A DNA stretch of 64,000 nucleotides, taken from contig CBDBIG010000003.1 of assembly GCA_965205845.1 (NCBI GenBank), positions 110,040-174,039 of the forward strand, given 5' to 3'. This document shows, one piece after another, positions 7,930 through 26,437 of the stretch. Numbering within the stretch: position 1 is the stretch's first letter; each line of letters starts with the position of its first letter. A program made the position numbers and the translations under genes. Source of the stretch: a bacterium (lineage in GTDB: Bacteria > SAR324 > JACQKK01). The notes under the pieces were generated by a model that saw only the letters and a program-made list of their open reading frames with translations, was not told the DNA's origin and did not search any database.

Positions 7930-8430
7930 TTAAAAGTCATCGCTGGTAATATCCGCCGCAAAATCAACCCCTCCTTCGACGCCATCTGCACCATATGAGT
8001 AAATAACGTAATCTCCGCCCGTCGAGGTATAGCCAAACCCATTACTCCAACCATCACTAGGCAATACCTTGCTGGTTAAGTAAGGCCCCTGCCAGTTTTT
8101 AGGAACCACCCCCACCCCGGGTTTGCGCAGCAAGGCTTCTAGCCCTTGTTTGGTATCGGGGTAAATGGCATTGTGTAAGCGGTATAAAGCAAGGGCAGAG
8201 CGTAACTGACCTATTTGAATTTGGGTAGCCTTCACCCGCGCTCTATCGCTTTCAGCAAATAAAGAAACCGCCACCACACTGGCAAGCATGGCCAAAATAA
8301 CCACCACCACCAGCACTTCAATAAAGGTGAAACCACCAAGATGGCACATGGTTTGGGAACCACGCTTCCTTGGAATAAAGCTTAAGGGGATGCTATCTCG
8401 ATGTTGCATGGTATCCGGTTTTTTTTTCAT
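7930..8430 (-). CDS. gspG: Type II secretion major pseudopilin GspG
   Basis: Prepilin cleavage/methylation motif GG|FTFIEVLVVVVILAMLA. C-terminal SDGWSNGFGY..YSYGADGVEGG resembles the GspG calcium-loop region. A short leader implies the ATG at 8349 (MCHLGGFTFIE) rather than 8430. Confidence 0.9.
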   Translation of the reverse strand: MKKKPDTMQHRDSIPLSFIPRKRGSQTMCHLGGFTFIEVLVVVVILAMLASVVAVSLFAESDRARVKATQIQIGQLRSALALYRLHNAIYPDTKQGLEALLRKPGVGVVPKNWQGPYLTSKVLPSDGWSNGFGYTSTGGDYVIYSYGADGVEGGVDFAADITSDDF

Positions 8431-8566
8431 GTTTGTTTTTGTCTATGGTGGATCATCTTTTTTTTAAAACCACCCAATACATCCCAAGGTATATCCGGTG
8501 ATATGCACGCCCCCCACATCCCATTGTAAAGGGTATTTTTCTCTTTTGTCATGGCTTGCCAACAGC

Positions 8567-9817: not shown

Positions 9818-9831
9818 AATAGTACATGTTT

Positions 9832-10953
9832 TTAACGCTTCCTCGATCGCTTACGCTTTTGACGCAAAGGCTCAATTTGGTAGCGGAACACCGCCCAATT
9901 ATGCTCACGTAGGGTACGTGAAAAATGGTGCAGACCATTTCCCTTGCCCACAAAAAATAGATAGTGCGAGGGTGTGGGTTGCACCACTGCTTGCATGCTC
10001 TCCTTACCTGGGTTTGCAATAGGGGTAGGGGTTAAACCTTGAATGCTATAAGTGTTATAAGGCGTATAGGTGCGCAAGTGCTTGCGGGTAATGTTGCCAT
10101 TGTAGTCTTCAATGCCATAAATCACGGTAGGGTCGCTTTGCAGTTTCATGCCCCTTTTTAAGCGGTTGTGAAACACCGAGGCAATGAGTGGCCGTTCTTT
10201 GGGAGCCCCGCTTTCTTTTTCGACAATCGAAGCCATAATAAGTGCTTGGTAAGGGGTTAGATTTGTACGCTGTGCTTTTTGCTTTAGCAATGGCCATGCT
10301 TGCACCAAAAACTGCCCCACCATTACGCGGAGCATACGCTTTGCTTCCATTCCTTCGCTTAACACATAGGTCTCAGGAAAAAGCAGCCCTTCAAGGGTTT
10401 TAGGGGGGATGGCAAAGGGCAAATTGAGAGTGCGAATAAAGTGTTGGTCTTTCGATAACTGCAAAAATCCCTTGGCAGAAAGCACTTTTTTTTCTTCTAA
10501 CCGCGCCGCAATTTGCTTTAGCGTAAAGCCTTCGGGAATGGTAACCAACACCTGTTGGACACTCCCTCGCACGAGTTTGTCGAGCAAGGAGTTGGCTGAA
10601 AGCCTGCCTTCAAAGGTATAAACACCCGCTTTAATGCGAACTGCATCCCCACGAAAACGCGCCAACCACAGCAAAGTGTGAGGGTTTTGAATGCGCTTGT
10701 TGTCTTTCCAGCGCCCCACCATGTGAATAAATGCTTCTCCACGACGCGCCTTTAGCGAGACAGGAGCAGGTTCTTGAATGCTAGTGCTAAGGGTGCCCCA
10801 CAACAAGACTACAGGCTTGGCACCAAACAACAACAACAAAGCGACCCCTACGCTCCATACCCAGGGGCTTTTAAACAGGGGTTTGGTTGTATCTTGAGGG
10901 GACGTCGGTTGAGTTTGGGTTGGCATGAGGGTTTTAAAAAAATAGGGTTTCAT
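9832..10953 (-). CDS. mltG: Endolytic murein transglycosylase MltG (YceG family)
   Basis: N-terminal TM segment. YceG-like motifs LIMASIVEKE, DPTVIYG, YNTY..GLTPTPIANPG. Confidence 0.85.
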   Translation of the reverse strand: MKPYFFKTLMPTQTQPTSPQDTTKPLFKSPWVWSVGVALLLLFGAKPVVLLWGTLSTSIQEPAPVSLKARRGEAFIHMVGRWKDNKRIQNPHTLLWLARFRGDAVRIKAGVYTFEGRLSANSLLDKLVRGSVQQVLVTIPEGFTLKQIAARLEEKKVLSAKGFLQLSKDQHFIRTLNLPFAIPPKTLEGLLFPETYVLSEGMEAKRMLRVMVGQFLVQAWPLLKQKAQRTNLTPYQALIMASIVEKESGAPKERPLIASVFHNRLKRGMKLQSDPTVIYGIEDYNGNITRKHLRTYTPYNTYSIQGLTPTPIANPGKESMQAVVQPTPSHYLFFVGKGNGLHHFSRTLREHNWAVFRYQIEPLRQKRKRSRKR

Positions 10954-11065
10954 GGATGCGTAATCTTGGTGGCAATCCCCAAGAAAGAGCGTGCTACCTA
11001 CCCTAGGCTAAGGCATCAATGCAAAAACCACGAACCCAGCAAACGGGTAGGTTCCACCATGTTGC

Positions 11066-12052
11066 TTAGTTAACTGGGTTAATCCGCGGGCTGGCAATTG
11101 CCCCTCGAATATAAAAGCCGTTTTTGTTGCTAGCAAGTTGCGCTTGCACAATTTGCCCCAACGGGCCGATTTGCTGTACCCAGGCGGGTGCCAGTTTGCC
11201 CAATATTTTCAAGTCTAATACTGAGTGGGCTGGCTGGCGAAAATTGACCACAATACTACCAGATATCTTGAATGATGCATTCCCCTTCCCCTCAAAGGTT
11301 TCGATTTCTAAGCGGTTATTTTTAAGCCCAGCGCGCAAAACCACTTGGGCTAGCACCAAATCGGGCAGAACACGTGTTAGCAGCTTGACACCACTTAACT
11401 TTATTTGTGCACCTCGCAGTTCTGCCATGGCACTTTGTAAGGGAAAAGAGCCCTTGTGGCTACGTTTAAAACGGGTATTTAGCTGCCAATCTCCCTGCAG
11501 TTGTCCTTGCATGTCGTGTGGTAGGTCAAACCTGCGCCCCCCATCAATGGCAGGTCCAAGAAACGCCATTTTTAACTCCCATGAATCGGCCATCCCAAAG
11601 GGTGCTAACAGGGTTATTTCCCCTTGCTGTTTTTGGATTGTGCCACGAAACACCACGCCCAAGGGAAAAAAATGAGGTGACAACGAGGCGTGATCTATAT
11701 GCAAAAAAATTCTGCTTTCTTTTTGTAGAACAACCCTTTCCATTTTTAATGTAGTCCAACCAAAATGCATCTTTTGGATGTTAAGTAGCATTCCTGTGTG
11801 CTGTTTTACCGTATTAACCAGAATATTTTCCATTCTTGCTACGGGGAGATAATATTTAAATGCACTCCACGTTCCTAAAATGAAAACCAATAAACACGCT
11901 GCAACCTTTACAGCACGATGTACCCAGTAAGGCCATTTTAGCAGCGGTTCTAAAAATTTTTTCACCCAACTTGCCCCTAGTATAACCCTGCTTAGAGAGG
12001 AGTTGCTAAAGCAAAGCCTCGACACGTAGCACCAAGCGAAGCAACTCAGCAT
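11066..12052 (-). CDS. GspN-like type II secretion accessory protein (tentative)
   Basis: Single N-terminal TM (VKVAACLLVFILGTWSAF) followed by a beta-rich periplasmic region. Follows the gspM-like gene. Start uncertain because it overlaps the end of the upstream gene. Confidence 0.4.
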   Translation of the reverse strand: MLSCFAWCYVSRLCFSNSSLSRVILGASWVKKFLEPLLKWPYWVHRAVKVAACLLVFILGTWSAFKYYLPVARMENILVNTVKQHTGMLLNIQKMHFGWTTLKMERVVLQKESRIFLHIDHASLSPHFFPLGVVFRGTIQKQQGEITLLAPFGMADSWELKMAFLGPAIDGGRRFDLPHDMQGQLQGDWQLNTRFKRSHKGSFPLQSAMAELRGAQIKLSGVKLLTRVLPDLVLAQVVLRAGLKNNRLEIETFEGKGNASFKISGSIVVNFRQPAHSVLDLKILGKLAPAWVQQIGPLGQIVQAQLASNKNGFYIRGAIASPRINPVN

Positions 12053-12491
12053 TATGTAAAGACTGTATAACTTCCATGGTATTGATCACCAACAAATTGG
12101 CATCGCTTTCAATGGCGTGCACAATATACACCATCTCATCAATGCTAATATCATCCACTTGCATTTCAACCTCTTGCAGACCCGCTACGCTACTATTGCC
12201 GATTGGATTAAGTTGAATGCGTTGCCTGATGCCAAAGCGATCCGCAATATTTTCTAATTGTGCGGTAAGCGATATCCGGCTAATTTGTTCTTGAAATTTT
12301 TGCTGTTGCTGTTGTTGTTCTGCGAGCACACCCAATTCTTTTAGCACGTTTTCCATGCGTTCAATTTGTTCATCCGATGACGCGCTACCAAAAAGCCCTC
12401 GACCCCCCACAAAATAAAGACCTACGCCCAGCACCACCACACCCAATAAAATGAGCAATTTTTTCTCGCGGTCATTGAGTTTCATAAGCAA
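12006..12491 (-). CDS. GspM-like type II secretion protein (tentative)
   Basis: ~160 aa. N-terminal TM (KKLLILLGVVVLGVGLYFVG), a coiled segment, then a small alpha/beta domain. Follows the gspL-like gene. Confidence 0.5.
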   Translation of the reverse strand: MLMKLNDREKKLLILLGVVVLGVGLYFVGGRGLFGSASSDEQIERMENVLKELGVLAEQQQQQQKFQEQISRISLTAQLENIADRFGIRQRIQLNPIGNSSVAGLQEVEMQVDDISIDEMVYIVHAIESDANLLVINTMEVIQSLHNAELLRLVLRVEALL

Positions 12492-12672
12492 TTAGGGCTC
12501 TATTTTTTATGATGATGAACACGCCGAGTTACCCCAAAATGCTGTCGATGGGGCGCAAAGCAAGCCTTGGTGACGAATTGAGATGAAGAGGCATGAGGAT
12601 TATGGAAATTTTTGAAACCAGCCATTTACCGCCTAACATACACAAAAAAACATTGGAACCAGCATAGCATCC

Positions 12673-14487
12673 TTACTTAGCCTTGGTGATTTGAATCTGA
12701 AAAGCCACTTTTTCTCCACTGCGCTTTTGACTCACACTCACTTTTTGTTCATCAAATACAGGGATATTTAGGAGGTAGATTTTCACAGATTCCACATCTT
12801 CAAAGCGCGTGGCCTCACCATTCAGCCTCAATTGCTCGCGCCCCACATACAAATTTTTTAAGTGCATTCCTTCGCGCTGAGACACCCCTTGCGATATCTG
12901 ACTGAGCCATTTAGACATTTGGTAATCGTAGTCCACAAAATGCTGGAGACGCTTTTCTTTTTCTTGGGCGTTGCGTACATTTTTTTTGCGCACGTTAAAT
13001 GCTGCGTCAATATTTTCGATGCTGGTATTACGCGGCAACTTTAGGATATGCGTAATTTGTGCTTGTACATTTTTCCGCTGCTCTTTTTGTGCAATGTTTT
13101 TTAAACCAAAGCCCAAAACCTCGAGCGACAACCACACTCCCAATGAAACGGCAAGGGCGAGAGAGCGCATGCGGTGTACTTTAACCCAACCAAGCCATGG
13201 GGTGGCACTGCGATAAAAAGTGGGGCTTTGCTGTGCCGCAACAAAGGGCGCGTTCTTTTCACCAGGCAAGGCAGACAGCACCCCCCAATGGGCTTTTTTT
13301 TGTTTGCAAAGTGCCGCCAAGCGCCACTCAAAGCGCAGGCGTAAAGCCCTTGTGTCCCATGTGAAGCAAGGTGAAAACAGACCCAAAACACGCACCTCAC
13401 ACGTTTGCAGCAAAGAGACCTCCGCCACAATAAACCGATTGATGGCTTCAGTACTGTCTTCTAAAGCATGGCGCAATGCCTGAGTAAACTTGCTTGGTGT
13501 CCAGTTTGATTGAAAAACACTCTCTTGTGTGTTTTGGGTTTCATGTTGCAGTCTTTCCCATACTGCAATGGGTGAATGTACCGTGGGTTGCAATGCCTCT
13601 TTTAAAATATCGCCAACTTTGCAATAGATATGTTGCATTTGGTGCAGATGCCCACCTGCCGTGGCACTCACAAACACTTCGTCTGCACCAACGTAAACTT
13701 GAAAATGAACGCCTTGCAATGGGGGTCCCCATGCATGCTGCAGTAAATGAGCAGATGAAATGGTACGCAAAACCCCACCCCCAGTTTCCTCAATGGCTTG
13801 GGTAATTTGCTGAAGGCGCTTTTTGGATTGCATGAGCACAAAAGCACGAGAGCCTTTGTCGTTGCGATGCTGATGCAAAGAAAAACACCATGCATACCTA
13901 TCCAAATTATCTAACATTTTTTCTGCTAGCATAAAGGACAGTATTTTGCTGGCTTTTGGTTTATTTTGCGTGGGTAGAGAAAACGCGTGAAAGTGCAAAA
14001 AGGTCGTAGGCAGTACGAGGATAACCCTACCAAACTGGTATTGATTGTGTTTAATCAACCCTGATAACATTTGGTTTAGAGCGTGGTGCTCTTTCTCACC
14101 CAATGCATGCTGCGGGCTTTCGTCCGATGCTTGTATACGCTGCCTACCACCCCATGTCCCGGTATCAACCGAAACCGCCGGGCTTCCCAGAGCCCCTTTG
14201 GGAAAGGGCCTTGGAAATGCTGACACGGCACTCACCGACACCACCTTTTGGACACCGGCCTCATGGTGCCACTCAAATCCCTCCAAAAAAGGGGGAGAAA
14301 ACGACAGGATATAGGCTGCGCGCTGGAAGAAGAGGCGTTCGGCGAGGGCTTGGAAAAGGTTGCGCAAAACGATGAGACCTACACGGCGTGCATCCACACG
14401 AAAGCGACCACGCCTTCGTCGAGAAAGCTTCCCACCCCCGAAAAAATGACGCACACACCGCCTCGATCCTGACTGAAACCCAAACAA
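12673..14487 (-). CDS. GspL-like (actin-like cytoplasmic domain + TM + periplasmic domain) type II secretion protein (tentative)
   Basis: Central TM (SLALAVSLGVWLSLEVLGFGL) separates a ~300-aa cytoplasmic part from a ~150-aa C-terminal part. Gene order L-M-N. The Arg-rich N-terminal ~140 aa look non-coding; the ATG at 14070 is a plausible true start. Confidence 0.45.
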   Translation of the reverse strand: MFGFQSGSRRCVRHFFGGGKLSRRRRGRFRVDARRVGLIVLRNLFQALAERLFFQRAAYILSFSPPFLEGFEWHHEAGVQKVVSVSAVSAFPRPFPKGALGSPAVSVDTGTWGGRQRIQASDESPQHALGEKEHHALNQMLSGLIKHNQYQFGRVILVLPTTFLHFHAFSLPTQNKPKASKILSFMLAEKMLDNLDRYAWCFSLHQHRNDKGSRAFVLMQSKKRLQQITQAIEETGGGVLRTISSAHLLQHAWGPPLQGVHFQVYVGADEVFVSATAGGHLHQMQHIYCKVGDILKEALQPTVHSPIAVWERLQHETQNTQESVFQSNWTPSKFTQALRHALEDSTEAINRFIVAEVSLLQTCEVRVLGLFSPCFTWDTRALRLRFEWRLAALCKQKKAHWGVLSALPGEKNAPFVAAQQSPTFYRSATPWLGWVKVHRMRSLALAVSLGVWLSLEVLGFGLKNIAQKEQRKNVQAQITHILKLPRNTSIENIDAAFNVRKKNVRNAQEKEKRLQHFVDYDYQMSKWLSQISQGVSQREGMHLKNLYVGREQLRLNGEATRFEDVESVKIYLLNIPVFDEQKVSVSQKRSGEKVAFQIQITKAK

Positions 14488-14712: not shown

Positions 14713-16659
14713 TCAAATTGTCTCCATTTCAGTCTCTACTTCCTCTATGCCTTCTTCTTGCGGGACATCACCCATCACCTCACCTCCAGAAGAAGCAAAC
14801 TCACCAGCAATATCCGACCGTTCTGTCGAGCGACGACGGGAAAAAGAAGCAAACGCTTGATCTTGAAAACCAGAGGATGTGCTCGACAAAAATTCGTTTA
14901 AAACATTGGCCATGTTCATCATGGTTGCACTCTTGCGCTTAATGCTTACAATGTCGATATCCAATAGCAACCCCGGACTCATATGGTATGGGTTCACTTG
15001 CGAGGTAAACCTTTTGAACTCATTCTCCAAGAACCGCACCCGGCCTTCCACTAAAGCACGAACCATGGGCGTCCTCCCGCCAAAAATTTTCTTCATCCTC
15101 TCACACATGATGGGAAACCGCAGTTCAATACTCTCAATCCGGGATTCGTAAGTCGAATTTTCTGCAACCACGGGTGGTTCTTCAGGATGAATAAAATGGA
15201 TTTCATTCCATTTCTTTTCGTGCGGTGCTGCACCCTCCTCGCTTTCTTCTTCCTCGTCCCCACTAAACAAAAAGCGAAACCACGAGCGACGACGTTCGGC
15301 CACCCGGCCACCCAACAGCGCACTTGAAAAATTTTCCCAGTTCTCCACACCATTGTCTTGTTGGTGCTCATCAAACATCTCTTCAACGACTTTCCATATT
15401 TCATCCACCGTACGTTGAAACTCATTTAACTGCGCCAAAAACGCTTCTTGCATTCGATGCAGTTCTACATCGGTGTAATAGTTTAGCACCATTTGATAGC
15501 GTTCATCGGGCAAACTCTCTTCATCGGCAGTTTCATACTCACGAATGATCAATCTACGGTCATAGCGAAAATTCTCAATGTGTTGATACCCCATCCGACT
15601 CCAATCCAACACATGGGTCAACGAGTTTATGGCAGTGTTCCAACCACGGCTACGAATATTGTCTTTATCAATCACTGAAATGATGCTATCGCGTAGACCA
15701 AGGGCATCAAAATCCTCGAACTTCAGGTTATTCTCCGCACTCCCCAAACCATCAAAAACTTTTTTGGGGATGAAGGCATAACGCAACGACTCGTTATGTT
15801 CCGTGTCATCAGAAGTGTATTTCTCCAGTGCCTTAATGCGTTCAAACACTTTTTCCTCGGCAGAAATCTCCGGTTTCCCTGAATCAATCATCTCCTCGTT
15901 GAGGGCTTCGATCTCTTTATCAATCGATTCAGTAATGCGATTGGTAACAACATCTTTTAGCAGGTCTATCGCAGCCGTCTGATAAGGGTATATGCGGCTA
16001 ATAAGCTCACTTTCATCTATATTGAGTGCTAATTTAAGCATCATCACATTTTCAGGTTTTTGCGGATGATCTCTAAAAGAGCACTTGGCAATAGCGTAAG
16101 CATTTTCACCACGCACAAAGGCACCCACATCCGTCTTGCGACGCAGCAGACTGTTGGTAGTGGTTTCTAAATCATTCATTTCACGCTGTACATGACCATG
16201 TAAGTGCCCATACATATTAACGATCGAACGCTCAAGCTCACCTGTATGGAATTTGTCAGACCCCCCAACACGATCTAACAAATAAGAAATAGCACGTGGG
16301 CTATAGCGATTCAAACTACGCATCTCTTCCATATCGACCAAGTCGCGCACCTTCTTGCCCATCTCGTCCTCAACCGTGGTCAAGTAGCGGTTAAGCATGT
16401 TTTGCATATTTTGATTATAGTAATTATGCAATTTAGACTTAACGGTCGTCATCACCTCCATTTTGCTCAACACCTCCGGTGGCAACTTGGAATGGATGTG
16501 ATTAAGTATTTTGTCTACCTCCTCATCAACAAAGAGGCGCCCCTCCATGTATTCATCACGTTGATCTCGGTTGATACTATTACGTGATCCAACTGCACTG
16601 GGAATCTCTGGGTGGACAACGTTTGGGCCGCGAGTAAGAATGTTGTCGGCGGACATCAA
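14713..16659 (-). CDS. Uncharacterised 648-aa cytoplasmic protein, paralogue A
   Basis: Long uninterrupted ORF. Collinear similarity over its full length to ORF 20541..22364, e.g. GPNVVHPEIPSAVGSRNSINRDQRDEY vs GPNLIHPETPSAVGSRNSVNRDDRDEY, MGYQHIENFRYDR vs MGYQHIENYRLAR, and NPYHMSPGLL vs NPYHLQPGLM. No signal peptide, TM segment or Walker motif seen. Acidic C-terminal tail. Confidence 0.85.
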   Translation of the reverse strand: MMSADNILTRGPNVVHPEIPSAVGSRNSINRDQRDEYMEGRLFVDEEVDKILNHIHSKLPPEVLSKMEVMTTVKSKLHNYYNQNMQNMLNRYLTTVEDEMGKKVRDLVDMEEMRSLNRYSPRAISYLLDRVGGSDKFHTGELERSIVNMYGHLHGHVQREMNDLETTTNSLLRRKTDVGAFVRGENAYAIAKCSFRDHPQKPENVMMLKLALNIDESELISRIYPYQTAAIDLLKDVVTNRITESIDKEIEALNEEMIDSGKPEISAEEKVFERIKALEKYTSDDTEHNESLRYAFIPKKVFDGLGSAENNLKFEDFDALGLRDSIISVIDKDNIRSRGWNTAINSLTHVLDWSRMGYQHIENFRYDRRLIIREYETADEESLPDERYQMVLNYYTDVELHRMQEAFLAQLNEFQRTVDEIWKVVEEMFDEHQQDNGVENWENFSSALLGGRVAERRRSWFRFLFSGDEEEESEEGAAPHEKKWNEIHFIHPEEPPVVAENSTYESRIESIELRFPIMCERMKKIFGGRTPMVRALVEGRVRFLENEFKRFTSQVNPYHMSPGLLLDIDIVSIKRKSATMMNMANVLNEFLSSTSSGFQDQAFASFSRRRSTERSDIAGEFASSGGEVMGDVPQEEGIEEVETEMETI

Positions 16660-16732: not shown

Positions 16733-19318
16733 TTAGCCCCTTCGGGCTATATCGAGTTTCATGGCAGACAATTTTGCAATGGGCACTCCGTACGGGGCAC
16801 TTACCACAAAATCTAGTCCAGTTTTATACGCAAAATCAATATTTTCGGGCTCGTAAACGTATGACCCAACCCCCCCGATCTCAATATCTGGTCTAATCAT
16901 ACGTCCATACTGCACCACAGCAGAAACCAACTCTTTCACGGGCACAGAAAGAACCTCGAAGGGGTTGTCCTTCAAGATATCATACTGATTATATGCAGGC
17001 AAAAACGTGTTTAGATCATCGGCTGACATCCCGTTGGCGGTCTGTGTCAGCATGGTGAAATCAATCACAAAAAACTCAGCTTGTTTTGCTAGATGCCCAG
17101 CCATCAAAGTGGCAGCGGGTAAATCAATCACGGCACCCACACGGTAATTCAGTTCGGTATTCGTTTCACCCAATTCTTTCAGCACTTGCTGTTCAATCCC
17201 ACGCACACCATGAATAACGTTGCTTTCAATATTACGTCCATGGCGAATAAAGCGCATCTCCGCATCTCCAACGACACCAGAGACGCACAAATCAAAATCA
17301 AGTTTGACCCCCGATTTTCGAGCTCGGCAAGCACCATAAAAAATACCCCCAGAAATTGCCTGATAAATCTCAGGGTAGGCAATGCAAATTCTCCCACCAC
17401 GTTGCCCCATCATGGGGTTTACGTTCCGCAAGTTGCTGGCTCTAGAATTAAAATGCTCAATCTCAACCCCATGCAACTGGGATATTTCTTGAAACAACCG
17501 CTCACGAGCATGACTATCGACAGGCAAAAACTCAATCAACGGGGTGTTCAACAAGCGTATGATAACCTTTTTACCATCCATTTTCTTAAAAAGATCTTCG
17601 CAAACACCACTCAACACGTCACGAAACCTTTTTAGCGCAGAAGTATATTTTTCTTTCTCCCCATACAATAAAACAACCTCCTGGAACAAGCGCGCTGTCT
17701 TCTCGTCGCGCATCATCGCTTCAACAGGCAGCAAGCCGATACCACCAGCACCCAGACGAATGCTTGAATCCACATCACCAACCGTAGCAGCCAATCCCAA
17801 TATTCGCAGATTCGTTCCCACACCATCCGTCACGTCAATCGCGCGTATAAATTCCTCCAATCCATTTTTTGCTGTATCAGGAAACTGCATACTGGCTTCA
17901 CCAAACCATACACTAGGCTCAGTGTACGTTGGGGATTCAAGGGAAATTATATCCCACTCATTCACCCGTTCCCCGCCAATGGTGGCGTAACCGTCAAAAA
18001 ACTGGACATCAGAATACAGCAAGCAAGGTTTACGCAAACTTCTCGAAACCACAGGTGCGTGAGAAGAATACCCGCCGACCGAAGCAAGCACACCCGCACA
18101 CATCTCAATGCCTTCAACATCTCCGGCATCCGTATGAGGCATTACCAAAATAAAATCTGCTTTTTCACCTTTCAAGGAACAACGGCGATGCTCTGCCAAC
18201 AAAGCATGGGTGCTAAAACACACGCGGCCAACGGCAGCCCCAGGTGACCCTGCAATACCCCCCTTGATCATTTTTAGATTGGTAACACTTGCATGATCAA
18301 TAACAGGGTGTAACAAATCTTGCATTTGGCCCGCGGGTACTGCATGCACAATGTCTTCACGCGTTAACAACTTTTTTCGGTATAGATCAAGCAGCGTTCT
18401 AATCTCAGCTTGAGTTGATTTGCCATCCACGGGGGTTTGCTCAATCAGCCATATTTTGCCATCTTCAATGGTGAATTTAATCTCACGAATATCTTTGAAA
18501 CTGGATTCAAGCAAACTACACATTTCTTGCAGCTGCTTTAAATAATTGACATCTAATTTTTCCAATGGCCGTCCACTTTCCTTTGAAACATCAAAAGAAT
18601 TCATCGAAAACACACCATTAATGCCTGCTGAACCGGTCACAATATCGCGTGAATACAGATGCCCACTCCCAGAATTCTCATTCCAGTTGCCATAGACCAG
18701 CAGTTGTACCAGTAGGGCCGCCTCAATGTCCTCGTTCATGTCATCGGCCAAATACCGTTTTGCGGTCTGGCTTAACACTGTTTGCAATTGCTCATAACCA
18801 TCTTGAGGAAAATCTTTGATAGGCCCTTGCAAATAGGCTTGACATATCTCCTTGCTTGCTGTTTTCCCTTGCACAGCATCCTCGATGCTCTTGACGTCCC
18901 GCCCCAAAAAAACGCTGCCAAATCTCTCCAATAACACCTTGTATTCATGATACGTAAACTCATCCCCCCAGCGTTTGGCAAGGCCTTCGGCAACACGATC
19001 ATTCATCCCAATGGTATGGGTAGATCTAAATGTACCGATCTGGATAGAGGGAGAGACAACCACTTTAAGTAGCATTGGTTTTTCAGGATTGCCAAATTCT
19101 CTGCCTGCAATGCTCTCTATTTTTCGAATGGCGGGCTTCAACGCAGCCAAATCCAACTCGACCAGCGCAGGCAAGTCCTTTGACTCAATCAAAAAGCCCG
19201 GCACTAAAGGTGTATTCAAACTTGCCAACTGCAGCAAATTGCGCCCACGCAAGCCAAACCGCTCTTGCAGGTCATTTCCTTCAACATGTTCTTTCTGATT
19301 AAAATGGAAAAATTGCAT
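16733..19318 (-). CDS. Pyruvate,phosphate dikinase (PPDK)-like protein with degenerate catalytic motifs
   Basis: 861 aa, collinear with PPDK. Phospho-His motif GGYSSHAPVVSRS is retained; NPMMGQRGGR and LNTPLIEFLP are recognisable. ATP-grasp and PEP/pyruvate-site motifs are substituted (details in findings). Confidence 0.85.
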   Translation of the reverse strand: MQFFHFNQKEHVEGNDLQERFGLRGRNLLQLASLNTPLVPGFLIESKDLPALVELDLAALKPAIRKIESIAGREFGNPEKPMLLKVVVSPSIQIGTFRSTHTIGMNDRVAEGLAKRWGDEFTYHEYKVLLERFGSVFLGRDVKSIEDAVQGKTASKEICQAYLQGPIKDFPQDGYEQLQTVLSQTAKRYLADDMNEDIEAALLVQLLVYGNWNENSGSGHLYSRDIVTGSAGINGVFSMNSFDVSKESGRPLEKLDVNYLKQLQEMCSLLESSFKDIREIKFTIEDGKIWLIEQTPVDGKSTQAEIRTLLDLYRKKLLTREDIVHAVPAGQMQDLLHPVIDHASVTNLKMIKGGIAGSPGAAVGRVCFSTHALLAEHRRCSLKGEKADFILVMPHTDAGDVEGIEMCAGVLASVGGYSSHAPVVSRSLRKPCLLYSDVQFFDGYATIGGERVNEWDIISLESPTYTEPSVWFGEASMQFPDTAKNGLEEFIRAIDVTDGVGTNLRILGLAATVGDVDSSIRLGAGGIGLLPVEAMMRDEKTARLFQEVVLLYGEKEKYTSALKRFRDVLSGVCEDLFKKMDGKKVIIRLLNTPLIEFLPVDSHARERLFQEISQLHGVEIEHFNSRASNLRNVNPMMGQRGGRICIAYPEIYQAISGGIFYGACRARKSGVKLDFDLCVSGVVGDAEMRFIRHGRNIESNVIHGVRGIEQQVLKELGETNTELNYRVGAVIDLPAATLMAGHLAKQAEFFVIDFTMLTQTANGMSADDLNTFLPAYNQYDILKDNPFEVLSVPVKELVSAVVQYGRMIRPDIEIGGVGSYVYEPENIDFAYKTGLDFVVSAPYGVPIAKLSAMKLDIARRG

Positions 19319-19495: not shown

Positions 19496-20479
19496 CTAGA
19501 ATAACTTTAACACTTTATTCACATCCACCTTAATAAAGATCTCATACCTCATGCTAGCACCTTCATATAAATAGCGCTGAAGCTTTGCGACACCCTTTAT
19601 TTCTTCCCCAGAAATACTGATAAGCAAAACATCACCGTGTTTTACCTTGCCCCATTTAAACAAGGCGTTGATGTTGTTTACCTTTTCACCATCATGAAAA
19701 ATATGCACATCGAGGCCAGCATACTTTGCTTTGTAACTCTCAACAATGTTTTTCCACGCCTCCACGTTTCCATTATGAAACAACTCATTGGTAACCTGCA
19801 CGCTATACTTCGGGGTCATGACAATCTTCTTCCCTGAACTCGTCGCTTTGGGGGGAGGCGATTTCCCCTTAACAGCAGGTTTTCTGGCTGGCACAGCTGT
19901 GGATTTAGAATGTGCAGCAGATTTGCTGGCAGCAGAGGTAATTTTAGGTTTGGGTGCAGGTTTAGGTCTTGGTGGAGCTCCGCCTAAGTTTTCCAACCCA
20001 CTCGGAGTAAGGCCTTCCAATACGGCAAAAAGAGCTCTCGCGGCTCTCTGCTCAAGATCAGCATCCTGAACATCGTACGCTTTAGCGTACACCACCATCA
20101 ACTCATCGGGCGTAACCTCTTGTACGTTTTCCCAATGTTTTTTTACCTTTGGGTTAATCAAAGTCACACCCATTTGCGGTTGATGGTACGCCACAACCAT
20201 GTCGACACGATTCCACTTGGACACCACTTCACACAACGCGTCAAAATCGTTGTACCTTTCGCGCACATTGCGCGACACCACCGTATACCCCATCCGCTCA
20301 ATAATTACAGCATTGAGCAAAGGCCCTATTTGCATCTTACTGACATTGTCCATTGCGTCAATAATGTTTGCTAAATTGCTGGTTTTCAACATCCTAACAA
20401 TGCCGGTCACCAAACGAAAATGCCCCAGCGAGCGATTGAACCCTCCACGGCTGCTCAAAGAAGAAAAATCATTAATCAC
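19496..20479 (-). CDS. Uncharacterised 327-aa two-domain protein with Pro/Lys/Ala/Ser-rich linker
   Basis: ORF between paralogue B and the PPDK-like gene. ~165-aa N-domain, linker GGAPPRPKPAPKPKITSAASKSAAHSKSTAVPARKPAVKGKSPPPKATSSGKK, ~100-aa C-domain. No motif I recognise. Confidence 0.7.
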   Translation of the reverse strand: MINDFSSLSSRGGFNRSLGHFRLVTGIVRMLKTSNLANIIDAMDNVSKMQIGPLLNAVIIERMGYTVVSRNVRERYNDFDALCEVVSKWNRVDMVVAYHQPQMGVTLINPKVKKHWENVQEVTPDELMVVYAKAYDVQDADLEQRAARALFAVLEGLTPSGLENLGGAPPRPKPAPKPKITSAASKSAAHSKSTAVPARKPAVKGKSPPPKATSSGKKIVMTPKYSVQVTNELFHNGNVEAWKNIVESYKAKYAGLDVHIFHDGEKVNNINALFKWGKVKHGDVLLISISGEEIKGVAKLQRYLYEGASMRYEIFIKVDVNKVLKLF

Positions 20480-20540: not shown

Positions 20541-22364
20541 TCAAGAATTCGCTGCTTCCCCCCCAAACGCATCGCTACCCTCATCCTTGATGTTGGCGTG
20601 TCTGCGGCTTCCAGTAACTACAGGCTGCCTATAGCCACTCGAAATGCGTGACAAAAACTCGCTCATCACATTCGACATTCCAGCAACAGTCACCTGCCGG
20701 CGCTTGATGCTCGTCAGTTTGAGTTGAATCATCAACCCTGGCTGCAAGTGGTATGGGTTCACAACACTCGAAAAACGAATAAACTCATCCTCTAAAAAAA
20801 ATAACCTGCTCTCGACAACTTCTCTATTTACTGGATGACGTTTCCCAAAAATTTGCGTTAGGCGCCTTCTAATAATCAAGAAACGCTCGCGAAACTCCGT
20901 GCTTAACTCTTCATAAGTGCGATTCATCTCCTCCAAGGTGCTTAGCTCACGCTGAATAAACACCACTTCATTCCATTTGCGATTCGGTTCAACGCTTTCA
21001 TCGCGATGAAACCAACCAGAACCCCCGCGACCTACCGTCTCACTCACAACATCACCCCAGTCGCGTAAATGGCTAGAAGTTTTCTCTTCGAGGTACACCT
21101 GTTCAACCACATTCCAAAGGCGCATTATCTCGCGTTGAAATTCGAGCAGTTGTGCAGTATAGGCAGCCTTTTGGGCTCGCATTCCATCCGCATCTACGTA
21201 TTCCATGTAAATCTCAAAACGCTCATCAGGCAACGTATCTTGCAGTGTGCTTTCATACTCACGCAACACCATTTTACGCGCCAAGCGATAGTTTTCAATA
21301 TGCTGATAACCCATGCGGCAGTTGTCTAAAATCGAGGTGATCGAATTAATTGCCGTATACCAACCGCGGGTGCGCAACGCTTCATGCTCAAGCATCTCAC
21401 TTGATGCCACTTCAAAAGTGAGCGGATCAGCCCCTTCACCACGCAAATCGGGCGTAATATTGCGAATACGCTCAAGCATGTCCTGGGAAAGCAGCTGATT
21501 AATGAGCGCATTGTCACCATCCTCCACAGCCAACCCCTGCTCGACCGCTTTTAATTTTTCAAACACCGCCTCGTTCGGGCTCAAAGCTTTGCGCCCCTCG
21601 CCTTCCAATTGGCGATTAATCTCGTCAATTTCCTTATCTACAAGTTCTCGCAAGCGCTTGGCAACCACATCTTTAATCAAAAATTCTGTGGGCAACAAAT
21701 GGTGTACAATCGGGGATATCAACTCAGATTCCAACACATTAATTGCAATATCAATGTCCACGACCTCTTCTGGTTTTCGCACATTGTCATGGAAACTGGC
21801 TCTCACCACCGCATACGCATTGGCACCATTGATAAAGCCTCCCACGTCAGACTGCCTGGTTAAAATCCGAATGGTCGCGTTTTCAAAATCGGCGGAACCA
21901 CGCGCAACATGACCTTGCAAATGCCCCATAATATTCACCGTGGATTTCTCGACCTCGGCGGTGTTGAAATCAGCACCACCCATTTGATTCAACAACCCAG
22001 CCACTTCCCGCGGCGTATAGCGATTCAATGCGTGATGTTCCTCTTTGTCCACCATATCGCGCACCTTCTTAGACATCTCATCTTCAACGGTGGTCAGGTA
22101 GCGGCTGAGCATATTTTGCATGCTTTGGTTAAAATAGGTATGCAAATGCGACTTTACATTCCCCTGCACAGTCATGTCTTGCAACACTTCAGGAGGCAGT
22201 TTGGCTTGAATATGGTTGAGAATCTTATCCACCTCTTCATCAATCATCGACCGTGATTCCACGTATTCATCGCGGTCATCACGGTTTACGCTGTTGCGAG
22301 ACCCTACCGCGCTAGGCGTCTCTGGATGAATTAAATTTGGTCCTCTGCGAAAATCACTACCCAT
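20541..22364 (-). CDS. Uncharacterised 607-aa cytoplasmic protein, paralogue B
   Basis: Full-length paralogue of ORF 14713..16659 (see that entry). First gene of the co-directional module. Confidence 0.85.
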   Translation of the reverse strand: MGSDFRRGPNLIHPETPSAVGSRNSVNRDDRDEYVESRSMIDEEVDKILNHIQAKLPPEVLQDMTVQGNVKSHLHTYFNQSMQNMLSRYLTTVEDEMSKKVRDMVDKEEHHALNRYTPREVAGLLNQMGGADFNTAEVEKSTVNIMGHLQGHVARGSADFENATIRILTRQSDVGGFINGANAYAVVRASFHDNVRKPEEVVDIDIAINVLESELISPIVHHLLPTEFLIKDVVAKRLRELVDKEIDEINRQLEGEGRKALSPNEAVFEKLKAVEQGLAVEDGDNALINQLLSQDMLERIRNITPDLRGEGADPLTFEVASSEMLEHEALRTRGWYTAINSITSILDNCRMGYQHIENYRLARKMVLREYESTLQDTLPDERFEIYMEYVDADGMRAQKAAYTAQLLEFQREIMRLWNVVEQVYLEEKTSSHLRDWGDVVSETVGRGGSGWFHRDESVEPNRKWNEVVFIQRELSTLEEMNRTYEELSTEFRERFLIIRRRLTQIFGKRHPVNREVVESRLFFLEDEFIRFSSVVNPYHLQPGLMIQLKLTSIKRRQVTVAGMSNVMSEFLSRISSGYRQPVVTGSRRHANIKDEGSDAFGGEAANS

Positions 22365-24449: not shown

Positions 24450-25868
24450 TTAACTTGATGCCGGAGGTAGCGTAACTGAAGTGGGACCGACAGAGTCTTG
24501 AAACTGGTCTGGAAAGGTGCCACTTCGCTTTCTACCATATTTCCCCCAACAAAAAACATCGCCATTTTCAACAAGGGCACAGCTGTGATAGTGCGATGCA
24601 GACACTGCTTCCACCTGAGGGTTAGCCCCTGGCATCGACACGGATACAGGCAAAGATGGGGAAGGGGTGTTGCCATCACCTAGTTGGCCGTGGTTGTTGC
24701 GCCCCCAGCACATGGCGCGGCCCTCTACCACGGCACAACTGTGATAATAACCAGCACTCACTGCTTCCACCTGAGGGTTAGCCCCTGGCATCGACACGGA
24801 TACAGGCAAAGATGGGGAGGCGGTGTTGCCATTGCCTAACTGACCGTAGTCGTTGCGCCCCCAGCACATGACACCCGTATTCAATTCGCCACTCTTTTTT
24901 ACCAAGGCGCAGGCATGGTTCCCGCCCAACGAGATAGCCTTGACACCACTCTCAAGCCCTTGCACTTGTGTAGGGGTGTAAGACGAAGAACCAGCGGTGG
25001 CAGATCCAAGCATCCCATACGAATTTATCCCCCAACATTTGGCTGCTCCATCGATGATGGCACAGGCACTTGTGGAACCTATGTCAATCGCACGCACCCC
25101 GCTCGATAAACCTGTTGAGGATACGGAATAAAATCCAGCCTCTTTCCTTCCATTGCCCAGTTGACCATGGACGTTATTGCCCCAACACATGGCCTCCTCG
25201 TCGAGGATGGCACAAGCACTCCTGGGGCCAATGCTTACGCCACTTACCCCACGGGGTAGATTTTTCACATACCTCCCCTCCCATCTGGAATCGACCGGAT
25301 CAGAGGGATTCTCCGCCTTGAAATCATCATAAAAACCCTTTCCCCAACAGATAACGCGGCCATCACGGATAACACAACCATGCTGAGATCCGTTGGCAGA
25401 TATCGCGGTAATTGTGGATGCCGCCTTGGTTGTGGACGCCGGTTGGGGTGGCATGGTAACTTCGCGCGCCTCGATGGCTGCGGGTAATCTCGAAGAAGAG
25501 ACACGCAAGCAAAACACGCGATTGCTTTTAAGTACGCACGCCCTCTTGTCATTTCTGCTCATCATAACAAGCTCCTCAAGCAAAGGGCCAATAGGTGCCG
25601 CCCCACCTGAGCCTCCCGTCAAATTATCCTCCGGGATGGCGTTCGAGGCACCGGAGGCAGATGATGCCTCATCTGTGTTTGCAACAGGGGAACCACCACC
25701 TTCGGAGCAACTAAATAGAAAAAGGGCACCCGTGAACACCACAGCGAGGGCAATGTTTTTGGAGGGTATGCCTCGTAAACTGCAGCAGGATTTTTGTAAA
25801 AACATTAGAAACAATCTTTCTTCATAATTAACACGATACAATGTACGGTGCAGACCAACGCGGTTCAC
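24450..25868 (-). CDS. RCC1-repeat (beta-propeller) lipoprotein
   Basis: Lipobox ALFLFS|C. Repeated CWG(R/N)N.(Y/H)GQLG(N/D)G blades (CWGNNVHGQLGNG, CWGINSYGMLGS, CWGRNDYGQLGNG, CWGRNNHGQLGDG). Likely start is the ATG at 25805. Confidence 0.8.
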   Translation of the reverse strand: MNRVGLHRTLYRVNYEERLFLMFLQKSCCSLRGIPSKNIALAVVFTGALFLFSCSEGGGSPVANTDEASSASGASNAIPEDNLTGGSGGAAPIGPLLEELVMMSRNDKRACVLKSNRVFCLRVSSSRLPAAIEAREVTMPPQPASTTKAASTITAISANGSQHGCVIRDGRVICWGKGFYDDFKAENPSDPVDSRWEGRYVKNLPRGVSGVSIGPRSACAILDEEAMCWGNNVHGQLGNGRKEAGFYSVSSTGLSSGVRAIDIGSTSACAIIDGAAKCWGINSYGMLGSATAGSSSYTPTQVQGLESGVKAISLGGNHACALVKKSGELNTGVMCWGRNDYGQLGNGNTASPSLPVSVSMPGANPQVEAVSAGYYHSCAVVEGRAMCWGRNNHGQLGDGNTPSPSLPVSVSMPGANPQVEAVSASHYHSCALVENGDVFCWGKYGRKRSGTFPDQFQDSVGPTSVTLPPASS

Positions 25869-26315: not shown

Positions 26316-26437
26316 AGGGTATCCCCCCTTATAAACAAAGCTTTGCCCCCCCCGCGCACCCCCTTGGCTTATTCAGGAGGGTATCCCCCCTTATAAACAA
26401 AGCTTTGCCCCCCCGCACCCCCTTAAAGCCTATTCAG
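26316..26437. repeat. Tandem array, ~60-62-bp unit x 2
   Basis: GGGTATCCCCCCTTATAAACAAAGCTTTGCCCCCC..GCACCCCCTT..ATTCAGG occurs at 26316 and 26378. The second copy overlaps the stop codon of the 26430..27860 gene. Confidence 0.9.

Follow-up and report, generated by a model that had tools for sequence, protein, structure and literature searches.

The locus described here raises the question whether a protein which is collinear with PPDK over its full length and has kept the phosphocarrier histidine can still be a dikinase when catalytic motifs are altered, and if not, which role it has taken over. The gene lies in the window, as we call the whole 64-kb stretch of DNA that was analyzed and in which also two tRNAs are found. 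An initial annotation had described its product as a PPDK homologue with altered motifs and probably a pseudoenzyme or repurposed swivel protein. Each of the eight motif strings given there is present in the open reading frame 16733-19318, namely GLRGRNL (aa 22-28), VVSPSIQIGTFRSTHT (87-102), IEQTPVDGKST (292-302), GGYSSHAPVVSRS (415-427), GLLPVEAMM (528-536), NPMMGQRGGR (634-643), FVIDFTMLTQ (750-759), and IEIGGVGSYV (812-821). Length and collinearity are preserved as had been stated: the protein aligns end to end (aa 3-854) with the solved PPDKs (1vbg, E 3.6e-99; C. symbiosum 1dik/2dik, E ~1e-87), and the PPDK equivalog model TIGR01828 matches aa 14-855 of 861. The three-domain architecture of ATP-grasp domain, swivel His domain, and PEP/pyruvate TIM barrel, collinear over ~870 aa, is thus found in the window protein (Table 1).

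Table 1. Coordinates of the PPDK-like gene, its domains, and the neighboring genes in the window
Feature	Position	Strand	Basis and remarks
PPDK-like gene, probable pseudo-dikinase	16733..19318	-	ATG start, 861 aa; TIGR01828 end-to-end match, PDB, AF2, Foldseek
Remodelled ATP-grasp-derived domain, aa 1-335	18314..19318	-	R24, K85, V87, H101, R278, K281, E293, T295 replace K22, S90, R92, L107, Q320, E323, Q335, R337
Linker and swivel phosphohistidine domain, aa 336-500	17819..18313	-	motif GGYSSHAPVVSRS; Pfam PEP-utilizers 37.7 bits
His420 codon of PPDK-like gene	18059-18061	-	within motif GGYSSHAPVVSRS
Eroded PEP/pyruvate-binding TIM-barrel domain, aa 501-861	16736..17818	-	Pfam PEP-utilizers_C 74.3 bits; P531, D732, T755, M756, V817 replace R561, E745, N768, D769, C831; R588, R640, R643 kept
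TP0747-like partner gene, 327 aa from GTG start	19496..20479	-	PF27497 TP_0747_N on homologues; AF2 pLDDT 84.1
Predicted HPr-like C-terminal domain of TP0747-like gene	19529-19822	-	predicted structure
His235 codon of TP0747-like gene	19775-19777	-	invariant motif NELFHNGNVEAW
cfpA paralogue 1, 607 aa, first gene of the module	20541..22364	-	NCBIfam NF040882 605.5 bits, cut-off 500
cfpA paralogue 2, 648 aa, directly downstream of PPDK-like gene	14713..16659	-	NF040882 726.6 bits, cut-off 500

Active-site residues are given in the numbering of the C. symbiosum PPDK, whose sequence was rebuilt and checked to reproduce the literature numbering. The residue calls rest on HMMER pairwise alignments, on four independent MAFFT alignments with different sequence sets, and on a family profile. 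On the ATP-grasp side K22 corresponds to R24, R92 to V87, E323 to K281, and R337 to T295, and the glycine-rich loop (G101) is one residue shorter. The ATP-grasp lysine had been considered lost, and K22 is indeed absent; the change is, however, a conservative exchange to arginine which is fixed throughout the family described below, and no simple loss. At the carrier site T453 is S418, and H455 is kept as H420 within GGYSSHAPVV, in agreement with the initial annotation. The same holds for the PEP side, where the catalytic arginine R561 has become P531 under several alignments, the Asn-Asp pair N768/D769 is T755 and M756 in FVIDFTMLTQ, and the catalytic cysteine C831 is V817. R617, R665, and R668 are kept (R588, R640, and R643), the latter two within NPMMGQRGGR, the surviving form of NPMLGHRGCR. 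Besides the retained R617, the exchanges of E323 to Lys and of E745 to Asp (D732) had been missed before. The window protein has no cysteine close to C831, its FxxxxxxLTQ motif is without an N-D pair, and its QT(R) strand lacks an arginine. Across the family the only alignment-dependent positions are Q335/R337, and for group A only (see below); in the window protein Q335 is read as Gln with a gap and as Glu if the strands YFLQTR and WLIEQT are aligned ungapped.

Could the protein be a genuine PPDK whose catalytic residues only seem to be missing because the alignment is out of register? That it is collinear over the full length and still has the NPMMGxRGxR and His motifs would be compatible with this, but HMMER, all four MAFFT alignments, and the family profile put non-catalytic residues at the key positions, and with 422.8 bits the TIGR01828 score is half of the cut-off (843.45). 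We consider a genuine PPDK very improbable. The alignments to the curated PPDKs show the catalytic residues to be absent and not shifted, and misalignment as the cause of the missing residues is ruled out by the HMMER pairwise and the four MAFFT alignments.

A broader comparison was based on 60 canonical PPDK representatives and the positions conserved in at least 90% of them. Of these positions the group of the window protein keeps 44 of 78 in the PEP domain and 21 of 65 in the ATP-grasp domain; by this count the residue loss is far beyond chance. In the ATP-grasp domain 29 of the 65 canonical-invariant positions have switched to another conserved residue. The nucleotide-site signature KRGEQR, nearly universal among the canonical representatives, is missing in the window protein; the motifs of the adenine side, VQxMVYGN and SxxGxxYSRN..TG, are still present in the N-terminal domain. 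K22 touches the γ-phosphate of ATP, and the K22A mutation kills the related enzyme RPH (PMC4844700); mutant PPDK structures with K22A and R337A are available (1jde, 2dik). The equivalent of R92K, R106K, served as ATP-binding knockout in VadK (PMC13400623). The E323K exchange alone proves little because RPH stays active when its Mg-coordinating Glu is changed to Ala (PMC4844700). From these substitutions we infer that PPDK activity, the reversible conversion of ATP, Pi, and pyruvate to AMP, PPi, and PEP, has probably been lost. With R617, R665, and R668 surviving, and in most group B members also E745, some anion binding in the PEP pocket may be possible.

The predicted structure of the protein is that of a PPDK: the AF2 model has a pLDDT of 90.4 and a pTM of 0.82, and the top Foldseek matches are all PPDK (E 3e-63). 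Comparison with the gene at locus L085, which is 77% identical, yielded a pN of 0.136 and a saturated pS of 0.74, i.e., an omega of ~0.05 or less. Per domain, pN was 0.12 in the ATP-grasp-derived domain, lowest in the swivel domain (0.088), and 0.195 in the PEP domain. All three domains are under strong purifying selection. A decaying pseudogene, or an artefact of assembly or annotation, has accordingly next to no probability. Many catalytic residues are missing, and according to the residue table the window protein is the most degenerate family member seen, but the frame of 861 codons is intact at this low omega, more than 50 full-length group B homologues exist with 42-53% identity to the window protein, the fold is predicted with confidence, and the synteny is conserved. 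Selection, family size, and predicted fold rule out the pseudogene. Taken together with the residue losses, the TIGR01828 score below the cut-off, and the invariant His, they support the earlier suggestion of a pseudoenzyme or repurposed swivel protein, which would have a non-dikinase role.

By sequence comparison the window protein is a member of a large, uncharacterised, and monophyletic family for which we coined the name CfpA-linked PPDK-like proteins (TP0746 family). In the neighbor-joining tree the family is separate from the canonical PPDKs on a long branch and monophyletic in 30/30 bootstraps. Nested within it and likewise monophyletic (30/30) is group B, which includes the window protein (P0001; 30/30) and whose sister lineage has an intact PEP site. 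The family never attains the PPDK equivalog cut-off of TIGR01828 (group A 652-711 bits, group B 404-516, canonical control P0264 1417.6). Family-wide marks are G-(L/I)-R-G, K-V-V-x-S, and (K/R)-F-(T/V)-(I/V)-E together with His455, and all of them are found in the window protein. The His455 equivalent is invariant in 114 of 114 members; R22, V92, and K/R323 are fixed in 112-114 of 114, and the conserved family replacements comprise R22, K90, V92, H107, R320, and K/R323. In P0253, a representative of the family, the phosphocarrier His is exchanged for Tyr. The more eroded lineages P0254-P0263 and P0266 have lost even R22/V92/K323, yet are still found in the cfpA module. The group A proteins inspected, which are labelled Spirochaetota, have kept R561, R617, E745, N768, D769, and C831 as well as the His. 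In group B the catalytic positions vary among the members (R561 to P, S, A, N, and others; C831 is C, S, L, A, or V), and conservation is 64% in the N-terminal domain vs 58% in the PEP domain. In the tree and the alignments this distribution shows the order of loss: the ATP-grasp residues were lost in the family ancestor and the PEP site later in the lineage of the window protein, whose nearest homologues carry the labels SAR324, Lambda- or Deltaproteobacteria.

The genetic context is not that of a metabolic gene. In the window cfpA, the TP0747-like gene, and the PPDK-like gene follow each other on the same strand with gaps of 61 and 177 bp, and cfpA and the TP0747-like gene adjoin the PPDK-like gene, in this order, also in L001-L004, L085, L086, and L087. 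Every family gene whose locus we examined is part of this module. We scanned species-representative genomes and analyzed the best 80 loci, i.e., those nearest to the first query sequence. Among the scan matches listed, the PPDK-like gene is present in 60 of 63 cfpA loci, with the gene order of the window, at a median of 1.1 kb downstream and on the same strand; three cfpA loci have neither partner gene. A second cfpA is located at the equivalent place in L002, L003/L004, and L087, and the group of the window also has a T2SS-like/YceG cluster downstream. The PPDK-like family is thus tied genetically to cfpA and the TP0747-like gene, by an adjacency which is no proof of a physical link to the filaments. 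Neither a canonical ppdK nor another PEP-utilising enzyme was found within the 64-kb window. A promoter and terminator scan of the cluster gave sites no more frequently than shuffled sequence and therefore says nothing on operon structure. We know of no demonstration that CfpA homologues outside the spirochetes form filaments, and our search for solved structures of CfpA or TP0747 found none. TDE0842/0843/0844 of T. denticola are for the most part repressed together (PMC3914990). When CfpA is lost, effects are seen on cell division, chromosome structure, and pathogenicity (PMC3398590). A literature search found nothing on TP0747/TDE0843 or on any link between PPDK and filaments.

The TP0747-like partner consists of an N-terminal α/β domain, a disordered Pro/Lys-rich linker, and a C-terminal domain which is predicted to be HPr-like. 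In the AF2 prediction the order of secondary structure elements of the latter is that of HPr (β-α-β-β-α-β-α), and most of its top-50 Foldseek matches are HPr, with target-normalised TM scores of 0.54-0.71 and weak E values of 0.008-0.1. The His of NELFHNGNVEAW is invariant in 74/74 loci and 120/120 proteins (194/194). It directly precedes predicted helix 1 and aligns with His15 of HPr in a global profile alignment, which is weak (probability <=2%). With hhalign the E values of the C-domain against HPr were 0.024-0.044, also at a probability <=2%, and Pfam PTS-HPr (PF00381) matched 0 of 50 TP0747-like members even at E<=10. A partner with a predicted HPr-like domain and an invariant His suggests a PTS-like relay which might feed the filament system.

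We think it probable that the window protein is a pseudo-dikinase which descends from PPDK, has both half-reactions gone, and acts within the CfpA module as an adaptor or His carrier. Ancestrally, the swivel His would be phosphorylated by PEP, in the manner of PTS Enzyme I. The swivel domain would then swing to the remodelled ATP-grasp domain, which would no longer handle nucleotide and instead dock or transfer to the HPr-like domain of the TP0747-like protein, and such a relay could couple the metabolic state to the CfpA filament system. In the lineage of the window protein the PEP input would have been lost. There the protein would most likely be non-catalytic and act in the two-CfpA filament module as conformational adaptor or His carrier, and any phosphorylation of it would arrive in trans. 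Such a role without PEP input could be the reason that both histidines and the N-terminal domain are conserved and the PEP pocket is drifting. The specific proposal that the cfpA – TP0747 – PPDK-like module is a new PTS-type phosphorelay on a PPDK chassis, in which PEP loads the swivel His, the former ATP-grasp domain docks the HPr-like acceptor, and the signal controls the filament ribbon, with the lineage of the window derived and its PEP input lost, is a tentative one; it may be right, but we would not rely on it.

The invariant His of the PPDK-like family could also be conserved for structural reasons. The protein would then be a purely structural pseudoenzyme, i.e., a scaffold, bridge, or anchor of the CfpA ribbon without phosphotransfer, and the His motif would be a domain-docking interface. 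Erosion affects both pockets, and the residues of the PEP pocket differ from one group B member to the next, which fits a relaxed catalytic constraint. In the Nichols proteome TP0746 and TP0747 have abundance ranks 9 and 30, as expected of structural proteins, and bridging and anchoring components of treponemal filaments have been reported (Izard 2004, as cited in PMC3398590). A phosphocarrier His in 114/114 and a partner His motif in 194/194 sequences, however, exceed what a docking surface usually needs, and the change of His to Tyr in P0253 is tolerated by the fold. Moreover group A keeps every catalytic residue of the PEP site, which argues for the chemistry being ancestral to the module. 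We regard the purely structural role as doubtful, a minority possibility that deserves attention.

A further explanation is a neofunctionalised enzyme whose ATP-grasp pocket would have acquired a new donor or acceptor of phosphoryl groups, such as PPi, polyphosphate, acetyl phosphate, or another nucleotide, possibly without need for a metal; a substrate would still be turned over via His420. The pocket is still rich in positive charges (R22, K90, R320, K/R323), the replacements are conserved and not random, the two adenine-side motifs persist, and among the large domains of group B the N-terminal one is conserved best. Nevertheless, no ATP-grasp enzyme is known to work with Val at R92 when in addition the Gly loop is shorter and the Mg ligand has been replaced by Lys/Arg. 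In addition P0254-P0263 and P0266 remain in the module despite their eroded pockets, which speaks against one new active site shared by all members. A new enzyme of this kind is therefore unlikely.

Compared with PPDK (EC 2.7.9.1; C. symbiosum 1DIK/1KBL, maize 1VBG) the window protein shares the three domains, the length, the predicted fold, G-G-x-x-S-H-A, NPM(M/L)GxRGxR, and R617, but it has both sites altered, fails the equivalog cut-off, falls into a separate clade, and has its gene in a module of filament genes. The histidine kinase VadK (Rv1127c) of M. tuberculosis is also a PPDK descendant outside central metabolism which uses the swivel His for regulation; it has, however, a working ATP-grasp domain (ATP/Mg-dependent autophosphorylation with essential R106), and its PEP domain is gone (PMC13400623). 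The window protein is rather its mirror image: all three domains are kept, R92 is Val, and both the ATP-grasp and the PEP chemistry appear to be lost. With PTS Enzyme I the group A proteins share the pairing of a PEP-binding TIM barrel with a swivel His, next to a neighbor predicted to be HPr-like. The window protein differs by its eroded PEP site and scores only 25.2 bits with TIGR01417 (cut-off 341.7) and 27.6 with PRK11177 (824), and no EI-type HPr-binding helical subdomain was identified in it. Rifampin phosphotransferase, PigC/RedH, and further relatives among the PEP-utilising enzymes, to which there are weak NCBIfam matches, likewise act on other acceptors with the ATP-grasp and swivel-His modules (PMC4844700), but they keep a catalytic ATP-grasp domain (Lys22 essential) and have another domain order or third domain; the Foldseek TM of the window model with RPH is 0.18.

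Known counterparts are TP0746 of T. pallidum and TDE0844 of T. denticola, both annotated as 'PPDK', which belong to the same family and have the same gene order of cfpA, TP0747, and X as the window; the inspected proteins of group A differ from the window protein by their fully canonical PEP/pyruvate site. The N-terminal 399 aa of TP0746, to which our comparison refers, and the full TP0747 sequence were taken from proteomics supplements. This part of TP0746 contains LLGIRG, KVVLS, the shortened loop, LHNFG, and EVRFTIE and scores 404-426 bits against family members vs 81-93 against canonical PPDKs. On the basis of these 399 aa TP0746 is a family member with the family's ATP-grasp substitutions. 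The TP0747 sequence of T. pallidum has the same motifs as the TP0747-like family.

In the syphilis spirochete the role of glycolytic PPDK has been assigned to TP0746 (PMC10013896). Should TP0746 be no dikinase, a new calculation of the ATP balance is needed for T. pallidum, which is thought to rely on substrate-level phosphorylation. Should the PTS-type relay exist, T. pallidum and its relatives would be without a true PPDK, and the ATP-yielding step from PEP, AMP, and PPi in the energy models would have to be replaced, e.g., by PEP carboxykinase plus oxaloacetate decarboxylase. The family, its two-step site loss, and its genetic tie to cfpA and the TP0747-like genes go beyond the initial annotation. 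The conserved three-gene module offers testable candidate partners for the treponemal cytoplasmic filament, which has been known for decades. The family also provides a natural series of stepwise pseudoenzyme evolution in which one active site is lost and then the other with the carrier His being kept, mirroring VadK. The CfpA module is present also in MAGs without a Spirochaetota label.

The PPDK-like ORF of the window is intact, and all eight motif strings quoted for it in the initial annotation were found at the expected places. Its product matches TIGR01828, the PPDK equivalog model of NCBIfam, from end to end with 422.8 bits, the curated cut-off being 843.45 bits. It passes the Pfam models PEP-utilizers_C and PEP-utilizers (swivel), and with Pfam PPDK_N it reaches 16.5 bits, below the cut-off of 27. 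Solved PPDKs align collinearly with the protein (1vbg, E 3.6e-99; C. symbiosum 1dik and 2dik, about 1e-87). The AlphaFold2 model, for which a 49-sequence family alignment was the input, has a pLDDT of 90.4 and a pTM of 0.82, and with this model Foldseek returned exclusively PPDK structures as top matches (E down to 3e-63). The whole-chain TM of 0.52-0.65 is expected because the domains of the protein are mobile. PPDK is the closest characterised family; a true PPDK is nevertheless rejected, since the protein does not qualify as a member by its equivalog score or by either catalytic site.

For the comparison of the catalytic residues we rebuilt the C. symbiosum PPDK sequence from HMMER output; it reproduced the literature numbering, as checked on K22, R92, G101, E323, Q335, R337, T453, H455, R561, R617, E745, N768, D769 and C831. 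The roles of these residues reportedly go back to the mutagenesis and structure work of Dunaway-Mariano and Herzberg, by Ye et al. in 2001 and likewise by Herzberg et al. in 1996 and 2002. Mutant structures are available in the PDB for K22A (1jde), R337A (2dik) and T453A (1ggo). Lys22 contacts the gamma-phosphate of ATP, and K22A kills the related enzyme RPH (PMC4844700); a mutation equivalent to R92K serves as an ATP-binding knockout (PMC13400623). In the window protein R92 (now V87), E323 (K281), R337 (T295), R561 (P531), N768 and D769 (T755 and M756) and C831 (V817) are lost, as is the Gly-rich loop, which is shorter by one residue. K22 (R24, a conservative exchange), T453 (S418) and E745 (D732) are replaced, and H455 (H420), R617 (R588) and R665/R668 (R640/R643) are kept. 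The Q335 equivalent is Gln or Glu, set by the placement of a one-residue indel. Residues needed for both PPDK half-reactions are missing, and the fold and the carrier histidine are kept. The initial annotation had rightly recognised the retained phosphocarrier His, which is H420 (H455 on the checked numbering), and the loss of the Arg, Asn-Asp and Cys of the PEP/pyruvate domain. On the ATP-grasp side it was correct that site residues are changed (V87, T295), but K22 is swapped for Arg and not simply lost; its list of substitutions holds where given, but E323K and E745D had been missed, and R617 is retained. The window protein is the most degenerate family member we have seen, and judged from its residues it is very probably not a dikinase.

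At 77% identity, P0002 (locus L085) is the closest relative. Between the two genes the synonymous sites are saturated (pS 0.74) and pN is 0.136 (0.12, 0.088 and 0.195 by domain); the dN/dS analysis proposed in the initial annotation therefore gives an omega of about 0.05 or lower. The window gene is under strong constraint. This omega and the confident fold prediction led us to reject a decaying pseudogene.

More than 240 relatives, each about 860-870 aa long, turned up among the 5.8 billion proteins searched, and 114 full-length members were aligned to the C. symbiosum reference. Common to all is the shortened Gly loop; K22 is replaced by R in 113/114, R92 by V in 112/114 and E323 by K or R in 114/114, and His455 is kept in every one of the 114. 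The members fall into two groups. Group A carries Spirochaetota labels, is 37-39% identical to the window protein and has a complete PEP/pyruvate site (R561, R617, R665, R668, E745, N768, D769, C831). Group B, to which the window protein belongs, is labelled SAR324, Candidatus Lambdaproteobacteria or Deltaproteobacteria, with 42-53% identity to the window protein; D769 is absent from every member, R561 is gone in nearly all, and the C831 position holds a mixture of C, S, L, A and V. We further counted positions with a conservation of at least 90% among 60 canonical PPDK representatives. Of 78 such positions in the PEP domain group A keeps 74 and group B 44, with 27 variable and 7 switched. Of 65 in the ATP-grasp domain group A keeps 22 and group B 21, and 29 of the positions in group B have switched to another conserved residue. 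Mean pairwise identity in group B is higher in the ATP-grasp-derived domain (64%) than in the PEP domain (58%); in group A this is reversed (61% and 78%).

When the family profile was searched against 1.84 billion cluster representatives, the scores dropped steeply from 1277 to about 640 bits across about 27 representatives, all with a non-canonical nucleotide site. The scores then level off among canonical proteins, nearly all of which show KRGEQR, H and RRRENDC at the diagnostic positions. All family members stay below the TIGR01828 cut-off: group A scores 652-711 bits, group B 404-516 bits and the more eroded representatives 537-545 bits, compared with 1417.6 bits for the canonical control. 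A simple neighbour-joining distance tree, with canonical PPDKs as the root, recovers the family as monophyletic in 30/30 bootstraps; group B, nested within the family, is likewise monophyletic (30/30). In the sister lineage of group B (P0241, P0058 and P0059) the PEP site is still complete; the remodelling of the ATP-grasp domain is therefore family-ancestral and the erosion of the PEP site later and derived. In one family representative, the 873-aa protein P0253, Tyr replaces the phosphocarrier His and the PEP site is also eroded (KRREDNL); this is a third degeneration step. Some further lineages (P0254-P0263 and P0266) have lost even the family-specific R22/V92/K323 and kept the His and the canonical PEP site.

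The window gene is encoded inside a CfpA module. CfpA is the spirochete cytoplasmic filament protein, and two cfpA paralogues, both above the NF040882 cut-off of 500 bits, flank the gene on the same strand; the 327-aa ORF separates the PPDK-like gene from the first cfpA. The order cfpA, Pfam TP_0747_N gene, PPDK-like gene was found at every family-member locus looked up, namely in one 4.27-Mb Spirochaetota genome, on two group B contigs and at the loci of the closest relative and of two more eroded representatives. The latter two (L086, L087) are still cfpA - TP0747 - PPDK-like modules. A scan of species-representative genomes with a CfpA alignment as query gave at least 394 loci for CfpA relatives. 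Of the best 80, 63 have at least 4.5 kb downstream of cfpA, and in 60 of the 63 a PPDK-like gene follows on the cfpA strand at a median of 1.1 kb. All 60 full-length proteins from these loci combine the family signature with an intact PEP site. Three Spirochaetota cfpA loci flanked by at least 10 kb on either side (L038, L054, L060) contain neither a TP0747-like nor a PPDK-like gene; either these are extra cfpA copies or the module is split in those genomes. The MAGs that contain the nearest relatives of the window's PPDK-like and TP0747-like genes carry the labels SAR324, Lambdaproteobacteria or Deltaproteobacteria and not Spirochaetota, which suggests that the filament module extends beyond spirochetes. 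In T. denticola TDE0842 is cfpA, TDE0843 hypothetical and TDE0844 "PPDK, putative", and the co-culture conditions that repress the three are mostly shared (PMC3914990). The arrangement in T. pallidum, taken from the literature, is TP0748 (cfpA), TP0747 and TP0746. In the literature searched we found no paper linking PPDK with the filament and none on TP0747/TDE0843. We regard the window protein with good confidence as a functional member of the module.

Features of the window and their coordinates
Feature	Coordinates	Strand	Remarks
tRNA-Thr(TGT)	375-447	-	Rfam
410-aa fusion ORF	3570-4802	-	N6/N4 DNA methylase domain (188.5 bits) and C-terminal HNH endonuclease domain
GspK-like	4953-6107	-	
Pseudopilin-like ORF	6171-6899	-	
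GspF	8567-9817	-	
YceG/MltG-like	9832-10953	-	
Unknown 328-aa ORF	11066-12052	-	
GspL-like	12673-14487	-	directly downstream of module
cfpA paralogue	14713-16659	-	NF040882, 726.6 bits
PPDK-like ORF	16733-19318	-	intact, ATG start, 861 aa
TP0747-like gene	19496-20479	-	327 aa from GTG at 20479; 285 aa in database gene call (P0390)
cfpA paralogue	20541-22364	-	NF040882, 605.5 bits
RCC1-repeat (beta-propeller) ORF	24450-25868	-	upstream of cfpA module; neighbour of next
RCC1-repeat (beta-propeller) ORF	26430-27860	-	upstream of cfpA module
tRNA-Leu(TAG)	45249-45332	-	Rfam

The database call of the TP0747-like gene seems too short at the N-terminus because conserved residues extend upstream to the GTG. 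The family has 2,929 matches, annotated as hypothetical throughout; the protein had no match in the Pfam library searched and has no solved relative. Conservation is extraordinarily high over a C-terminal stretch of some 95 residues, and the 12-residue motif NELFHNGNVEAW in this domain is present at 74/74 loci and in 120/120 database proteins, in all lineages. Full T. pallidum TP0747 carries the motifs of the family as well (sequence from PMC11668736). In the AlphaFold2 model (pLDDT 84.1) a disordered Pro/Lys-rich linker connects two folded domains, and the predicted C-domain has the order beta-alpha-beta-beta-alpha-beta-alpha. HPr, the PTS histidine phosphocarrier, accounts for most of the top 50 Foldseek matches of this model in the PDB (target-normalised TM 0.54-0.71 over about 90-99 columns), with probabilities up to 1.0 yet weak E values of 0.008-0.1. 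The invariant His of the C-domain immediately precedes predicted helix 1, the place of His15 in HPr, and a global profile-profile alignment also sets it on His15 (hhalign E 0.02-0.04, probability at most 2%). Pfam PTS-HPr was matched by 0/50 members even at E<=10. As the sequence evidence is weak, we call the C-domain HPr-like by prediction and do not claim membership of the HPr family.

With respect to function, group A pairs, like PTS Enzyme I, a complete PEP site with a swivel His and should therefore autophosphorylate from PEP. The remodelled ATP-grasp domain has probably given up canonical Mg-nucleotide binding, yet it is conserved with new, mostly basic residues; its simplest role would be that of a second station of the swivel for a protein partner. 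For this partner the predicted HPr-like domain encoded next door is the obvious candidate, and the output of such a relay would act on the CfpA filament. The module may work like the Enzyme I/HPr pair, but membership fails for both proteins. In group B the catalytic positions of the PEP site differ from member to member, which has the look of relaxed catalytic constraint. Here the PEP station has been lost too, and the His, the N-terminal domain and the His motif of the partner are fixed, a combination that favours a non-catalytic His carrier or a conformational adaptor. The rival view of a neofunctionalised enzyme whose remodelled pocket takes a new donor is weakened, as the more eroded lineages without R22/V92/K323 remain in the module. 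For the window protein our preferred reading is such a carrier or adaptor within the filament module, which would receive any phosphoryl group in trans; the pseudo-enzyme or repurposed swivel protein of the initial annotation is supported, and extended, by the loss of residues at both sites, the retained His and fold, and the constraint. A phosphorelay or adaptor mechanism is tentative for group A, at somewhat under an even chance, and less probable still for the window protein. Conceptually, the nearest precedent is VadK (Rv1127c), a PPDK descendant turned regulatory His kinase; it is a mirror image in that it keeps the ATP-grasp site and has the PEP domain deleted (PMC13400623).

The presence, in a conserved cytoplasmic-filament module, of a PPDK descendant that retains its His and is very probably inactive at both sites bears directly on the understanding of treponemal metabolism and filaments. 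For TP0746 a proteomics table lists the PPDK_TREPA peptide RLDRGLLGIR (residues 19-28, next residue G; PMC5015957), and the first 399 residues of TPANIC_0746 come from a proteome FASTA (PMC10600179). These contain LLGIRG (K22R), LLKVVLSPNLAIS-NYPVLHNFG (R92V and the shortened loop) and EVRFTIE (E323R), and with phmmer they score 404-426 bits against Treponematales family members versus 81-93 bits against canonical PPDKs. On this sequence evidence the T. pallidum "PPDK" is a member of the CfpA-linked family; for its C-terminal half we infer the PEP site from the rest of group A. TP0746 is now named "putative PEP-binding protein" in RefSeq and takes rank 9 in the Nichols proteome, with TP0747 at rank 30 (PMC11668736); it is still treated as a maker of ATP from PEP, AMP and PPi (PMC10013896). 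Its high abundance would also fit a purely structural bridging or anchoring protein, the rival to a His carrier or adaptor, as would the bridging and anchoring components reported on treponemal filaments (Izard 2004, as cited in PMC3398590). Also abundant in T. pallidum are the GTP-dependent PEP carboxykinase (rank 10) and the alpha subunit of the Na+-extruding oxaloacetate decarboxylase (rank 25; both from the supplements of PMC11668736). If TP0746 is no real PPDK, these two enzymes offer, on paper, a route from PEP via oxaloacetate to pyruvate. According to a reported study by Gonzalez et al. in 2005, treponemes possess homologues of HPr, HprK and EIIA-Ntr and lack PTS permeases, and the Enzyme I gene of T. 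pallidum is a pseudogene. If this holds, an Enzyme I-like activity of TP0746 would be of extra interest.

Above the gathering score Rfam detected in the window two tRNAs only and no rRNA. Two cfpA copies, as in the window, are also present at L002, L003 and L087. The group B contigs add the second cfpA and then GspL/M-like, YceG, GspF and pseudopilin genes in the same layout as the window. The cluster from the GspL-like to the GspK-like gene (4953-14487, minus strand) follows the module in the same order at loci L002 and L003/L004; therefore this T2SS-like/YceG cluster may be functionally linked to the filament module in the lineage of the window.
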